DNA of 64,000 nucleotides from an uncultured Alphaproteobacteria bacterium. GTDB taxonomy: Bacteria > Pseudomonadota > Alphaproteobacteria > Rhizobiales > Hyphomicrobiaceae. The notes below the pieces were generated by a model. It did no database searches. It was not told the DNA's origin and saw nothing but the letters and a program-made list of their open reading frames with translations. Position 1 is the stretch's first letter; the number at the start of each line of letters is the position of its first letter. The translations under genes were made by a program, and so were the position numbers. The stretch is from contig CAVOJD010000036.1 in assembly GCA_963696075.1 (NCBI GenBank), forward strand, positions 2,199 through 66,198, in the 5' to 3' direction. Positions 5,304 through 55,582 of this stretch are shown piece by piece.

Positions 5304-5378
5304 TTAGAGCGTTTCAGGAGTAGATGGAACCAATCTGCCGCGGCAGAATTGGTTCCATCTACTCCTGAACCGCTCTAA
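5304..5378. repeat. 75-bp near-perfect palindrome (REP/MITE-like hairpin)
   Basis: TTAGAGCGTTTCAGGAGTAGATGGAACCAATCTGCCG is followed by its reverse complement with one mismatch and one 1-nt bulge. It lies directly next to the truncation point of the IS remnant. Confidence 0.85.
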
Positions 5379-19205: not shown

Positions 19206-19255
19206 GAACGCTCACTCACCGGCCGGCGCCCTCCCCCGCAGTTGGACCGGACAGG

Positions 19256-19609
19256 CCCACGCCTTTCCGGTTCAGCTTTCCGCGAAACGGCGCAACAGCC
19301 TGATTGGGCCTCTCGATTTCATGATCCATGGTGGTCGAGACGCGAAATCCCGACCGGCATCGGCTCGTTTGTTTTTCCATTTCATTAGCCACCCCCACGC
19401 CGTCATGGCCGCGACGGCGGCCATCCACGCGCGCCTCGGCAAACGAGGCGCTTGCGGTGGAGTACATATTCCGCGGCAACGACATAGTGACCCGACAAAC
19501 CGCGTGAATGGAAACGCCCGTGGATGGCCGCCGTCGCGGCCATGACGCGTTGGGAAGGGAAAGCGGGGTCTACTCCTAGAGCGTTGGAGTTAGACCGGAC
19601 AGGTGTGGG
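19256..19609. mobile_element. MITE-like non-coding element, copy 1 (354 bp)
   Basis: Terminal inverted repeats CCCACGCCTTTCCGGT and ACCGGACAGGTGTGGG (14/16 complementary). 5-bp direct repeat ACAGG at 19251-19255 and 19610-19614. Homologous to 28573-28924. Confidence 0.75.
19401..19547. repeat. 29-bp perfect inverted repeats bracketing an 89-bp core (inside MITE copy 1)
   Basis: CGTCATGGCCGCGACGGCGGCCATCCACG at 19401-19429; its exact reverse complement at 19519-19547. Each arm also contains its own hairpin ATGGCCGC/GCGGCCAT. Confidence 0.9.
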
Positions 19610-19656
19610 ACAGGCCCTCGCTTGGCCGTTGCCTCATCTGATGCGCCCGTGCCGCA

Positions 19657-28467: not shown

Positions 28468-28572
28468 GACGTAATCGCCGCGCATCGCATCGATCGAGTA
28501 CGGCAGCGACCCGGCCCGCATCCAGCGCTTCTCTTGAACAACGAACCCCTCGTCTGTCATCCTCGGGCTTGT

Positions 28573-28924
28573 CCCACTGCTGTCCGGTTCAGCTTTCCGC
28601 GAAACGGCGCAACAGCCTGATTGGGCCTCTCGATTTCATGATCGATGGTGGTCGAGACGCAAAATCCCGACCGGCTTCGGCTCCCTCATTGTCCATTTCA
28701 TTTCCCACACCCATCGTCATGGCCGCGCAGGCGGCCATCCACGGGCATGTCCAATCCCGCGGCTTATCGGGGTCACGAAGTCGTTGCCGCGAAACATGTA
28801 CTCCGTAGCCGGCGCCTCGTCTGCCGAGGCGCGCGTGGATGGCCGCCTACGCGGCCATGACGGCGTGGGGAGGGGAAGCGCGGTCTAAGCCTAAAGCGTT
28901 CGAGTTAGACCGGACAGTAGTGGG
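28573..28924. mobile_element. MITE-like non-coding element, copy 2 (352 bp)
   Basis: Terminal inverted repeats CCCACTGCTGTCCGGT and ACCGGACAGTAGTGGG (15/16). 5-bp direct repeat CTTGT at 28568-28572 and 28925-28929. Left arm differs from copy 1 at 3 positions over the first ~100 nt. Confidence 0.75.
28716..28861. repeat. 28-bp inverted repeats bracketing a 90-bp core (inside MITE copy 2); core inverted relative to copy 1
   Basis: GTCATGGCCGCGCAGGCGGCCATCCACG at 28716-28743; reverse complement with 1 mismatch at 28834-28861. The core aligns to the copy-1 core only after reverse complementation. Confidence 0.9.
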
Positions 28925-29030
28925 CTTGTCCCGAGGATGACCACTGAGAGGCAGTGAGACCGTTGAGGGGCAGCGATAAAGCCGAAACCGCCTATCAGCC
29001 AACGATCCTCACCGCGAATACGAACACGTC

Positions 29031-29178
29031 AAAGGCAAAGCCTTCTGGGAGCATTGCGACCCGGCGCCTCGCTCCCGCGATCCGGATGCGCAGCATCCGC
29101 AGCGGCAGCGCAAAAATGAGCCGCCCCCGCGGAGGGCCCGGTCGCGAACGCGACCGGAATTGCCCGCGAGCGAAACAA
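29031..29178. repeat. degenerate solo unit of the 106-bp repeat family, with an inserted hairpin
   Basis: GGCAAAGCCTTCTGGGAGCATTGCGACCCGGCGCC and CCCGCGGAGGGCCCGGTCGCGAACGCGACCGGAATTGCCCGCGAGCGAAACA align to the array unit at 34363-34868. It ends a few nt from the pepF stop codon. Confidence 0.55.
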
Positions 29179-33789: not shown

Positions 33790-34260
33790 ATGAGGGACGA
33801 CTGCCCGATGCAGGACTTAATGACGTTCGTTCTCAGCCTCGGCGGCTGGCTCTGGTTCATTCTGGCGCTGATCCTCATCCTGCTGGAATCGGTCCTGCCC
33901 GGCATCCATTTCATCTGGTTCGGCATGGCCGCCATCATCGTCGGCTTCCTTGCACTCGCCCTCGATATCGACTGGCAGATCCAGGTATTCTTGTTCGCGA
34001 TCCTATCCGTCGTCACCGCATTGCTCGCACGCCGCTTTCTGTCGCCTGAAAACACCGTCACCGACGAACCGAGCCTGAATGAGCGCGGCGCGTATTACGT
34101 CGGCCGTGTCGTCGTCGTCGAAGAGCCGATTGTAAACGGCCGTGGCCGCGTCCGCGTCGGCGACAGCCTCTGGACCGCCTCCGGCCCGGACATGGCAACC
34201 GGCGCACGCGCCAAAGTCACCCGCGTCGACGGCACCGTCCTCGTCGTTGAACCGGCCTGA
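33790..34260 (+). CDS. NfeD family membrane protein (partner of the SPFH protein)
   Basis: Three N-terminal TM helices and a C-terminal OB-like beta domain (GRGRVRVGDSLWTASG...VTRVDGTVLVVEP). Start could be the ATG at 33790, 33808 or 33820. Confidence 0.8.
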   Translation: MRDDCPMQDLMTFVLSLGGWLWFILALILILLESVLPGIHFIWFGMAAIIVGFLALALDIDWQIQVFLFAILSVVTALLARRFLSPENTVTDEPSLNERGAYYVGRVVVVEEPIVNGRGRVRVGDSLWTASGPDMATGARAKVTRVDGTVLVVEPA

Positions 34261-34362
34261 GAAACCCGGCCAGGGCGCCACTGCCCGCCAGCAGAACCCG
34301 GCGGCAAGACCCGTAGATCTTGCGAAGCCAAAACGGCAACCGGCACACCGTTCTATCCGGGG

Positions 34363-34868
34363 GCAACCGCGACCCGCGCCTTTGGCGCACCCACGCGGAG
34401 GGTCCGATCGCGACTACGACCGGAACAGCCCGTGCGCGAAATCACCTCGGCGGCAAAGCCGCCGGGGAGCAACCGCGACCCGCGCCGTTGGCGCGCCCGC
34501 GCGGAGGGCCCGATCGCGACTGCGACCGGAACAGCCCGTGCGCGAAATCACCTCGGCGGCAAAGCCGCCGGGGAGCAACCGCGACCCGCGCCGTTGGCGC
34601 GCCCGCGCGGAGGGCCCGGTCGCGACTGCGACCGGAACAGCCCGTGAGCGAAATCACCTCGGCGGCAAAGCCGCCGGGGAGCAACCGCGACCCGCGCCGT
34701 TGGCGCGCCCGCGCGGAGGGCCCGGTCGCGACTGCGACCGGAACAGCCCGTGAGCGAAATCACCTCGGCGGCAAAGCCGCCGGGGAGCAACCGCGACCCG
34801 CGCCGTTGGCGCGCCCGCGCGGAGGGCCCGGTCGCGACTGCGACCGGAACAGCCCGTGAGCGAAATCA
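34363..34868. repeat. tandem array of a 106-bp GC-rich structured unit (4.8 copies)
   Basis: Unit starts at 34363, 34469, 34575, 34681 and 34787, an exact 106-nt period. Copies 3 and 4 are identical, copy 2 differs from them at 2 positions, and copy 1 is the most diverged. The last copy is truncated at GAAATCA. Confidence 0.95.
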
Positions 34869-36113
34869 GAGCCCGACGCGCAACAGGTCGTGCACATGCA
34901 CGATGCCAACCGGCTTGCCCTTCTCGACGACGAACAGCGCCGTAATCCGCGCACTGTTGATCTGCTCGAGCGCTGCGGATGCCAGCAGATCCGGCCGGAT
35001 CGTCTTCGGCGCCTTGGTCATGATCTCGGCCGTCGTTGCCGTCAGCAGCCCATTGTTCATGTGTCGGCGAAGGTCACCGTCGGTGATTACACCGACCAGC
35101 CGGCCCGTGCGGTCAACCACCCCCAGGCACCCGAACGCCCTCTGCGTCATCGTCACGATCGCGTCCGCCATCGAAACGTCCTTGCCGACCAGCGGCAGCG
35201 CACCATCACCCGCGTGCATGATATCGCTGACATACTTGAGCTGCGCGCCAAGTGAGCCGCCCGGATGGATCTGCTTGAAATCCTCCGCCGTGAACCCCTT
35301 CGCCTCAAGCAACGCAATCGCCAGGCAATCGCCCAGCGCCAGCGTCATCGTCGTCGACGTCGTCGGCGCCAACCCATGCGGACACGCTTCCGGCGCCTTC
35401 GGCAACGTCAGCACGACGTCTGCCGCCTTGCCGAGCGCTGATCCTGCTTTCGACGTGATCGCGATCAGCGGAACAGCAAATCTGCGGGTATGATTGAGGA
35501 TATTGCCAAGTTCGAACGTCTCCCCCGACCATGAGATCGCCAGCACCGCATCATCGCGCGTAATCATGCCAAGGTCGCCGTGCGAGGCTTCACTGGGGTG
35601 GACAAAATGCGCCGTCGTCCCCGTGGATGCCAGCGTCGCGGCGATCTTCTGGCCGATGTGACCGGATTTCCCAATCCCTGTCACGATCACCCGGCCCCGC
35701 GCCGCACCAAGCACTTGCACCGCCTTCGCGAAAGGCGCCGCCATCTGCTTCGACAGCGCCGCCATCAAGTCGTTCAGACCGTTGATTTCCAGCTTGAGCG
35801 TCCGCTTGGCGGATCGCGCAATGAGCGAGACCCCGGCCGCACGCGTGCCCGCCGTCGATCGGGCAACCCGCTTAGGTGTCCGCGTCTTGGCGCCCGCGGC
35901 AGACTTCGTCTTGCTTTTAGGGTTCGCCACTGCCTGAGCCGCGCCCGCCGGTTTCGGCGCAGCGCCCTTCTTGGGCCCCTTCGCGGGCTTGGCCGCCTGC
36001 TGGGATTTCCCCGCCACAGCCTTTGCCCCGCGCACAGGCTGACTGCGTTTCACCTTGCCCGTCTCGCCGGTCTTGAGCGTCTGCCGCCGTGTCGTGGCTG
36101 CCGTCATCGTCAT
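34866..36113 (-). CDS. kpsF: KpsF/GutQ-family arabinose-5-phosphate isomerase with Ala/Lys/Pro-rich N-terminal extension
   Basis: SIS domain (VIVTGIGKSGHIGQKIAATLASTG, LAISWSGET) and tandem CBS domains (GCLGVVD, ALFVVEKGKPVGIVHVHDLLR). About 90 extra N-terminal residues rich in A, K and P. ATG at 36113 or 36107. Confidence 0.8.
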   Translation of the reverse strand: MTMTAATTRRQTLKTGETGKVKRSQPVRGAKAVAGKSQQAAKPAKGPKKGAAPKPAGAAQAVANPKSKTKSAAGAKTRTPKRVARSTAGTRAAGVSLIARSAKRTLKLEINGLNDLMAALSKQMAAPFAKAVQVLGAARGRVIVTGIGKSGHIGQKIAATLASTGTTAHFVHPSEASHGDLGMITRDDAVLAISWSGETFELGNILNHTRRFAVPLIAITSKAGSALGKAADVVLTLPKAPEACPHGLAPTTSTTMTLALGDCLAIALLEAKGFTAEDFKQIHPGGSLGAQLKYVSDIMHAGDGALPLVGKDVSMADAIVTMTQRAFGCLGVVDRTGRLVGVITDGDLRRHMNNGLLTATTAEIMTKAPKTIRPDLLASAALEQINSARITALFVVEKGKPVGIVHVHDLLRVGL

Positions 36114-37928: not shown

Positions 37929-38190
37929 TTGAGATCGCGCCGGCCCAGTCATCTTAACCACGCAGGCCCGAATCAGCGCCGACCATTGATCCACCCAACG
38001 GTCTGCGTTCCCGAAAAATGCGAGAGCATTTATCCGGGATCTTTCGCGCCTGCGGCAAGCCACACCGTGACATTCGATGATAAGGATCCCGGATAAGCGC
38101 TGACGCGCTTTCCGGGAAAGCAAATTGGAAACCCGAGGCGTGCTTCAACCTCACAGTTAGGAGGTGTCCGCTAATCGGGATTGGCCTTGA

Positions 38191-53037: not shown

Positions 53038-53113
<76 letters not shown>

Positions 53114-54892: not shown

Positions 54893-55056
54893 CGGCTCGG
54901 CCTGGCGCCAATTTCCCACCTCTCCCGTCCACGTCCCGCTTCGCTGGTATCCAGCCCCGCCTTGCGCACGCCGTGCGCCCTCAGTCCGTCCGCCGTTGGC
55001 GCCAAACCGGCGTTGCCTTGGTCCGCGCTGACGATAGCGACTCTGGGGCTCCAGGC

Positions 55057-55149
55057 AAAAAAAAAGGCCGCTCGATGAAGAGCGGCCCGAAGTCTAGGGA
55101 GGAAACGCCCAAGGAGGGCAGCAGTCGATGAAACCATCGACCACACCGA
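55057..55149 (-). ncRNA. candidate trans-acting sRNA A (anti-Shine-Dalgarno CCUCCC type, AbcR/alpha-r15-like)
   Basis: Minus strand: hairpin GUCGAUG/CAUCGAC, hairpin GCCC-UCCUU-GGGC, single-stranded GUUUCCUCCCUAGACUUC, then terminator GGCCGCUCUUCAUCGAGCGGCC plus U9. Candidate promoter TTGCAA-N18-GATATT at 55156-55185. The 5' end is inferred only. Confidence 0.5.
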
Positions 55150-55472
55150 GAAGGTAATATCGCATTGCACAATTCGCAATTGCAAAAACCGCAAAGCTGA
55201 CCTGCATTCGTAGAGGAGATCCAGCCGAAGCCGCGCGAAATACGCATAGCGAGCGCATAACACACTGTTAAATAGGGGATTTCACCAGAGCGACCCTGCG
55301 ACGTTTTAGCCTTCATCCGACAGAGGAATGTATTCCAACGAGCCCGATACGCGACCAGACAGCTCTTCAAGTCGGCAAAAACCAGACAAAATATCGCAGC
55401 GCAGCAAAAATCAGAAACGTGAAGGTCCCTGATCAGCAAACCGTCACTGCAAGGTTCCCTTGCCTGCTCCAC

Positions 55473-55582
55473 AAAAAAAGGCCGCTCATCAAGAGCGGCC
55501 CGAAGTCTAGGGAGGAAACGCCCAGAATGGGCGCAGGTGAGCCAGGGCTCGCCTGTAAGACGAATATGGGAACGATTCGGTT
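55473..55582 (-). ncRNA. candidate trans-acting sRNA B (paralogue of A)
   Basis: Shares the 45-nt 3' module (GGGCGUUUCCUCCCUAGACUUCGGGCCGCUC...GAGCGGCC plus U7) with sRNA A. Has an upstream hairpin with GUUCCCA. Candidate promoter TTGACA-N15-TATTGT at 55589-55615. The 5' end is inferred only. Confidence 0.5.

Follow-up and report, generated by a model that had tools for sequence, protein, structure and literature searches.

REPINs are pairs of REPs in inverted orientation with a preferred spacing, a spacer that is less conserved than the ends and a hairpin fold (Bertels and Rainey 2011, PMC3116915). In the REPINs of SBW25, 71 bp separate the invariant 16-mers (PMC3116915). Short inverted repeats that form hairpins also drive small “flip-flop” inversions without a dedicated recombinase, as is stated, citing Kim and Lee 2005, in PMC12928735; the plastid inversions treated there involve 5-50 bp between 11-24-bp repeats in AT-rich DNA. 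Inverted repeats likewise bound the two-orientation segments of fimS, hin/gin and the Bacteroides invertible promoters. The DNA analysed here, a stretch of 64 kb (64,000 nucleotides; below, the window) from a bacterium of the Hyphomicrobiaceae, contains two repeats, 9.3 kb apart, in which a segment between inverted repeats (“brackets”) lies in opposite orientations. We conclude that this is probably a fixed, bracket-mediated inversion of a REP-type doublet inside a MITE-like repeat and not a working switch.

The first repeat (copy 1) occupies positions 19256-19609 of the + strand (354 nt, with boundaries taken from the alignment of the two copies) and lies between a DUF1036 gene (+) and a TPR gene (-), a convergent pair. 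Its terminal inverted repeats are CCCACGCCTTTCCGGT and ACCGGACAGGTGTGGG, and the target-site duplication read from the sequence is ACAGG (left, 19251-19255; right, 19610-19614) or, in an alternative reading, the 10-nt GGACAGGCCC. The left bracket (19401-19429, + strand) is a REP-like hairpin unit, CGTC-ATGGCCGC-GACG-GCGGCCAT-CCACG, and the right bracket (19519-19547, - strand) is its perfect inverted copy. The 89-nt core between them (19430-19518) defines orientation A and includes a conserved inner hairpin, GCGCCTCG-GCAAA-CGAGGCGC, that adjoins the left bracket. The second repeat (copy 2; 28573-28924, + strand, 352 nt) lies between another convergent pair, an MFS transporter gene (+) and an M3 oligoendopeptidase gene (-), has terminal inverted repeats CCCACTGCTGTCCGGT and ACCGGACAGTAGTGGG and is flanked by the duplication CTTGT (left, 28568-28572; right, 28925-28929). 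Its left bracket (28715-28743, + strand, loop GCAG) and right bracket (28834-28862, - strand, loop GTAG) enclose a core of 90 nt (28744-28833) in orientation B, that is, the reverse complement of the copy 1 core. The terminal repeats of the composite are ~17 nt long, of the form CCCAC(N)CTGTCCGGT, with 15-16 of 17 positions matching, as at the ends of MITEs; the duplications of 5 nt may alternatively be read as 10-11 nt.

An earlier note on this DNA had described a core of roughly 90 bp bracketed by 28-29-bp inverted repeats. The segment is indeed bounded in this way, by 29-nt inverted arms that match at 29 of 29 positions in copy 1 and at 28 of 29 in copy 2, where the single mismatch lies in the hairpin loop (GCAG versus GTAG). 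Each bracket also has, as had been noticed, a hairpin of its own with an 8-bp stem and a 4-nt loop, and this pattern (ATGGCCGC-NNNN-GCGGCCAT) occurs four times in the window versus 0.01 times expected by chance. The outer arms are collinear between the copies, with 95% identity over 111 nt on the left (19256-19366 versus 28573-28683) and 84% over 95 nt on the right (19515-19609 versus 28830-28924). The middle, conversely, pairs between the copies only as inverted repeats (101 nt at 88% and 57 nt at 86%), and a full-length match of the two copies is obtained once the middle of one of them is reverse-complemented. When the core was aligned alone (89/88 nt), the flipped alignment scored 49 with 71 identities, which makes the earlier manual count of 73 of about 90 essentially right, and the direct alignment scored -5; shuffled controls (n = 500) had a mean of -11, a standard deviation of 4.3 and a maximum of 3. 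A four-way alignment of the arms places the collinear-to-inverted breakpoints inside the brackets or at most ~8 nt outside them. The flipped core is real, and the observation was confirmed in every particular.

The same loci were available from a second strain, L121, an independent metagenome assembly of the same species with 98.0-99.3% identity to the window over 19 kb. Both copies are found at the same sites in L121, and alignment to their window orthologs is collinear from bracket through core to bracket (421 nt at 96%, 375 nt at 97%). Copy 1 is in orientation A and copy 2 in orientation B in both strains, no locus being found in both orientations between these consensus assemblies; the flip is therefore fixed and predates the divergence of the strains. 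The comparison is between two genomes of the species, in both of which, as consensus assemblies, alternative orientations of low frequency are invisible, and for two loci in two strains the chance of agreement under fast random switching is 1 in 4. L121 also bears on the possibility that an assembler oriented a short segment between perfect inverted repeats arbitrarily. Inverted repeats of 29-40 nt can confuse short-k-mer graph assemblers, but the 147-nt unit is about as short as one short read, the cores have diverged by 20% with locus-specific substitutions common to both assemblies, and the independent L121 assembly repeats both orientations at both loci. We therefore consider an assembly artefact to be extremely unlikely.

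The two strains differ in ways that reveal ongoing exchange between brackets and between copies. The left loop of copy 1 is GACG in the window versus GCAG in L121, the right loop being GACG in both; the left loop of copy 2 is GCAG in the window versus GTAG in L121, with GTAG on the right in both. In each copy, then, the arms are identical in one strain and unequal in the other, and the change in copy 1 affects two adjacent bases; this is what is expected if one arm served as the template for correcting the other. A tract of at least 47 nt in the left arm of copy 2 (~28613-28662, + strand) resembles copy 1 rather than its own L121 ortholog: 53 of 55 aligned columns agree with copy 1 and 45 of 55 with the ortholog. 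Judging from these columns, copy 1 sequence has replaced this tract after the strains diverged. In L121, the left arms of copies 1 and 2 are only 80% identical overall, and the 95% identity of the left arms in the window is due to the recent ectopic conversion. The underlying divergence of the copies is uniform, with ~80-84% identity everywhere, the core included. Taken together, bracket homogenisation and the conversion tract indicate that short-homology exchange operates both within and between the copies.

Syntenic loci from other genomes were gathered by a protein search with the MFS transporter of the window, followed by contig look-ups. Sister species with 86-90% nucleotide identity lack both copies at the syntenic loci. 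At site 1, 61-85 nt replace window positions 19206-19655 in L118, L120, L122, L124-126 and L128; at site 2, 111 nt are found in place of window positions 28576-28929 in L118 and L133; the contigs for P0122 and P0123 come from the sister species and lack the element. Since these species do without it, the element is dispensable. The 352-354-nt composite, present in both strains of one species and absent from its relatives, has the anatomy of a MITE and is a mobile insertion. Like MITEs, Correia, RIME and BIME, it combines terminal inverted repeats and a short duplication with the absence of coding capacity, an intergenic location and presence/absence between relatives, and it is composed of palindromes in mosaic fashion, as BIME and RIME are. 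Unlike these elements, it has no similarity to the plasmid collection or the fetched loci. A distant blastn search of the plasmid collection with the whole element gave no match, a 24-kb near search returned only housekeeping-gene matches (73-77%), and the only match in a metagenome scan with a left-arm 22-mer was one due to chance. No autonomous partner with matching ends, no carrier without the doublet and no third copy of the carrier were found in the plasmid collection, the fetched loci or the metagenome scan.

Both insertion sites have a history of their own. Copy 2 occupies precisely the loop of a hairpin of the host DNA, GTCATCCTCGGG-CTTGT-CCCGAGGATGAC, the left half of which (GTCATCCTCGGG-CTTGT..., 28556-28572, + strand) is separated by copy 2 from a right half that ends at 28941. 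Site 2 (window positions 28556-28572 plus 28922-28941) represents a second hairpin type, GTCATCCTCGGG-CTTGT-CCCGAGGA, and in the sister species a 143-nt inverted doublet of this second type is found there (L118 11353-11498; L133 3620-3760). The single closed hairpin at site 2 of the window species is consistent with a deletion between the 8-nt direct repeats CCCGAGGA, and the loop of the collapsed hairpin became the target of copy 2. At site 1, the sequence immediately left of copy 1 (19240-19255) is similar to the right end of the element itself. In L121, the right arm of copy 1 (at approximately window position 19575-19580) is interrupted by an IS481-family element (L121 11295-12335) that encodes a 322-aa transposase and is flanked by a CTAGA/CCTAGA duplication, so that mobile DNA has targeted site 1 more than once. 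No match was found between the ends of the IS481-family element and those of the composite.

The flipped core had been interpreted in the earlier note as the geometry of a DNA inversion switch. The inversion between inverted repeats did occur; the switch is unsupported, given the same orientations in L121 and the failure to find a recombinase or a promoter. In such a programmed switch, a recombinase encoded elsewhere would flip the core and thereby alter the expression of the neighbours or the 3′-end structure of their RNA. Near-perfect inverted repeats that bound a segment seen in both orientations are what a switch would have, and the brackets are indeed the most conserved part of the element and are homogenised within each copy. 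However, when all 122 ORFs of at least 140 aa in the 64-kb window were scanned with Pfam and PHROGs, no integrase, invertase or transposase appeared in the best 25 of 84 Pfam families and the best 25 of 36 PHROGs families listed. Nor do the gene lists of the syntenic loci contain a cognate serine or tyrosine recombinase, the one entry of a recombinase kind being the IS481-family transposase that interrupts copy 1 in L121. A consensus scan identified no promoter-like (σ70-like) site in either region and no excess of terminator-like sites over chance, and the ORFs across the element have no Pfam match, so that no orientation-sensitive promoter, terminator or coding segment was detected by these means; the absence of a nearby recombinase and promoter, noted earlier, was borne out within this scope. 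Rfam searches with gathering and with E-value cut-offs yielded no family; the hairpin matches that they returned were far below threshold and due to chance. A candidate coding ORF, which runs in both copies from ATGATC(C/G)ATGG to a TGA in the right bracket, was rejected as a GC-rich chance ORF: it has no Pfam domain, no Shine-Dalgarno-like sequence was seen upstream of it, and two indels shift its frame between the copies, the C-termini of which would be unrelated.

Other observations, too, speak against a switch. The second strain keeps the orientation at both loci, and the element is a recent mobile insertion that lies 3′ intergenic between convergent genes and is missing from sister species. 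The distance between the sites, 89 nt, is below that of characterised invertible segments (314 bp in fimS and ~170-230 bp in Bacteroides promoters). Thus, the window segment differs from fimS, hin/gin and the Bacteroides promoters in being much shorter, in having no recombinase or promoter that we could find and in its orientation, which is fixed across strains. It differs from them also in that its repeats are a dispersed family and not a private pair: in other genomes these brackets are found at scores of unrelated loci, in many cases alone or on either side of an ORF. One old rearrangement mediated by the palindromes fits better than a switch, which we consider very improbable; a recombinase-driven switch would require both an enzyme encoded elsewhere and infrequent switching.

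The bracket unit, CGTCATGGCCGC-NNNN-GCGGCCATCCACG, is REP-like and common in Hyphomicrobiaceae. A scan of a genome collection with the bracket pattern, one genome per species, retrieved at least 117 loci, nearly all of them from Hyphomicrobium/Hyphomicrobiaceae, along with a few chance matches inside coding sequence in other phyla. These loci and the window contain at least 162 exact-pattern matches, with a maximum of 5 per 8 kb in one MAG, and wherever genes were called (the window, L121 and L134-136) the matches are intergenic, as expected of REPs. The only part shared among the loci is CGTCATGGCCGCG(A/C)AGGCGGCCATCCACG with a pyrimidine-rich stretch on the head side; neither the outer arms nor the core of the window element was found in any of the at least 117 loci listed (best E 0.1). 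The loci listed include just two orthologous pairs, neither of which is informative on flips. Units often form tail-to-tail inverted pairs (26 among the loci listed). More than half of the short doublets (11 of 20, the two of the window included) measure 139-143 nt, those of the window being 141 and 142 nt long; the doublet cores are otherwise unrelated, and the flanks show no target duplications. In the predicted single-strand fold of the two window doublets, the brackets are paired and the core forms a branched loop (z = -9.0 and -7.0).

As can be seen, both the doublet spacing and the hairpin fold are those of REP doublets and REPINs. In common with those of Pseudomonas and Enterobacteria, the unit is a GC-rich palindrome in inverted pairs, here ~141 nt end to end; it is extragenic, its spacer is less conserved than its ends, its single strand forms a hairpin and target duplications are missing from its flanks. 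Unlike in REPINs, the spacer in the window is longer (~90 nt), and a branched loop takes the place of a continuous stem. A second difference is that the units of the window genome are confined to the interior of another mobile repeat (4 per 64 kb). A generic GTC-stem-loop-stem-CCA scan found only the four brackets in the 64-kb window, versus 0.1 expected by chance, and no free-standing doublet was found there; with four brackets only in 64 kb, the doublet appears to be a passenger of the larger repeat. No closed “empty-site” palindrome of the family-1 hairpin (GTC...GAC) was present in the fetched loci.

A third difference from REPINs concerns the gene that the brackets accompany. A motif scan of ~1 Mb of fetched related loci, which is a weak test, revealed no ORF with a RAYT-like motif pair; the gene found flanked by the repeats encodes a GIY-YIG nuclease and not a RAYT. 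In other Hyphomicrobiaceae, the same inverted brackets surround units of 440-470 nt with a ~110-aa GIY-YIG ORF (Pfam E ~1e-15). Genes of this kind, enclosed by the same hairpins or by stem-swapped versions with the identical flanks CGTC...CCACG, were located at L048 6931-7393, L062 6512-6974, L081 3705-4174, L099 4975-5437, L052 6260-6702, L134 2917-3400, L135 2962-3440 and L136 2997-3441. A profile of the ORF identified eight genes in the fetched loci; all eight have a bracket hairpin at most 112 nt away on at least one side, and five have hairpins within ~80 nt on both sides. L134, L135 and L136 were fetched by means of the GIY-YIG protein and are thus free of hairpin selection bias. In L135, an exact hairpin precedes the annotated start by 11 nt, and its inverted partner downstream is truncated; in L136, an exact hairpin is located at the gene start, and none was found downstream. 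In L134, from the isolate Hyphomicrobium sp. D-2, hairpins are present on both sides, with stems ATCCCGAC/GTCGGGAT and ATCCCGGCG/GGCCGGGAT and unchanged flanks CGTC...CCACG. The window hairpin split by copy 2 and the 143-nt doublet of the sister species have the same layout, and across these hairpins the stem covaries and the flanks are fixed.

We consider it possible, though short of likely, that the bracket hairpins are the ends of an undescribed mobile or selfish family that employs a ~110-aa GIY-YIG nuclease in place of a RAYT. If so, the 141-143-nt doublets may be non-autonomous derivatives and the flipped core of the window may be a relic, and cleavage of hairpins by the nuclease followed by repair could drive inversion and bracket homogenisation. 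The GIY-YIG protein has 2074 homologue clusters, many of them on ~1-kb contigs, and a full-text literature search returned no paper linking GIY-YIG genes to REP, REPIN or MITE in bacteria. We also considered the doublet cores as internally deleted GIY-YIG cassettes and found no support for this: an nhmmer profile of the cassette gave nothing at E up to 10 against all 20 cores; doublet cores and GIY-YIG cassettes are alike only in the subterminal 10-15 nt.

If doublets are mobile on their own, the opposite orientations in the window could have another origin: a mobile doublet of ~147 nt, REPIN-like and possibly GIY-YIG-mobilised, would have inserted separately into the two carriers, at one and the same quasi-palindromic position but with opposite orientations, or the core would have been converted from a donor in antiparallel register. 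Doublets at unrelated sites in many Hyphomicrobiaceae, with the length of ~141 nt conserved and the cores diverse, do imply spread of the family, and at one orthologous site a 142-nt doublet is found in one genome and a 463-nt GIY-YIG unit in another. In the carrier, the doublet is flanked by a C-rich/G-rich inverted repeat into which either orientation would fit, and the cores are only 80% identical. This identity is, however, equal to that of the unconverted arms (80-84%), as expected if core and arms were duplicated together. Moreover, there is no other hairpin or doublet of this type in the 64-kb window, no GIY-YIG gene of the subfamily was found in the window or in L118-L129, and no doublet-less carrier turned up in the searches described above. 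That two entries should fall on an identical position in both copies, with none elsewhere, is improbable. With only four hairpins and no free doublet in 64 kb, one acquisition followed by a flip is more economical, and we regard separate entries, or conversion from a donor, as unlikely.

For the inversion of an already nested doublet, which we favour, we envisage the following course. The segment is an inverted doublet of CGTC-ATGGCCGC-NNNN-GCGGCCAT-CCACG across a spacer of 89-90 nt, nested mid-way in a 352-354-nt MITE-like repeat that has inserted twice between convergent genes, the copies differing by one inversion of the doublet. The likeliest cause is an unprogrammed exchange between the 29-40-nt inverted brackets, either by intramolecular homologous recombination between them or by a double template switch at a stalled fork while the brackets are paired as a stem. 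The exact mechanism is inferred; an inversion would be the expected occasional crossover or template-switch outcome of bracket pairing. The event precedes the split of the two sampled strains and is fixed at each locus; it may have taken place before transposition, in a master copy, or at the locus itself after insertion. The orientation is probably neutral, because the same stem of 28 bp or more forms in a transcript or single strand either way and the element is 3′ intergenic and has no detectable promoter. As summarised in PMC12928735, plastid small inversions are similar in that a segment flanked by hairpin repeats is flipped by general recombination or replication errors and gives rise to fixed lineage differences; they are described there as having no functional consequence, and we take the same to hold for the window flip. 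The window inversion differs from them in its dimensions and setting, with ~90 bp between GC-rich repeats of 29-40 bp in a bacterial mobile element.

The window contains several further repeats and structured elements. Five tandem 106-nt units with a hairpin CCGGTCGCG-ACT-GCGACCGG are located at 34253-34888, between NfeD and SIS/CBS genes; a lone relative of this unit occurs downstream of copy 2 (29122-29175), and one stretch in the sister species (L118 16873-16959) also matches the 106-nt units. A near-perfect palindrome at 5304-5378 (31-nt arms at 97%, 13-nt spacer) has the 9-mer TCTACTCCT in common with the right arm of the composite and may represent another intergenic repeat family. At 38004-38122, arms of 41 nt (78%) flank a 37-nt spacer in an imperfect inverted repeat. 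Two tandem mmgR (suhB family) sRNA paralogues on the - strand (55050-55126 and 55464-55539) scored 80.5 and 62.6 bits in Rfam, above the gathering threshold, and mark the organism as an alphaproteobacterium; a tRNA is located at 53041-53112.

A paralogous segment that occurs in two orientations between inverted repeats is, by itself, no evidence of phase variation, and REP-type doublets of this kind will be among the hits when genomes are searched for invertons. In a repeat of ~350 nt, we find inversion, arm-to-arm homogenisation and ectopic conversion between copies 9 kb apart, three short-homology processes whose timescales are bracketed by the strain and species splits. The link to GIY-YIG genes is a more interesting lead than the flip itself: if true, REP-like repeats would have a second route, independent of RAYT, by which to arise and persist, and an abundant, uncharacterised family of small nucleases would gain a role.
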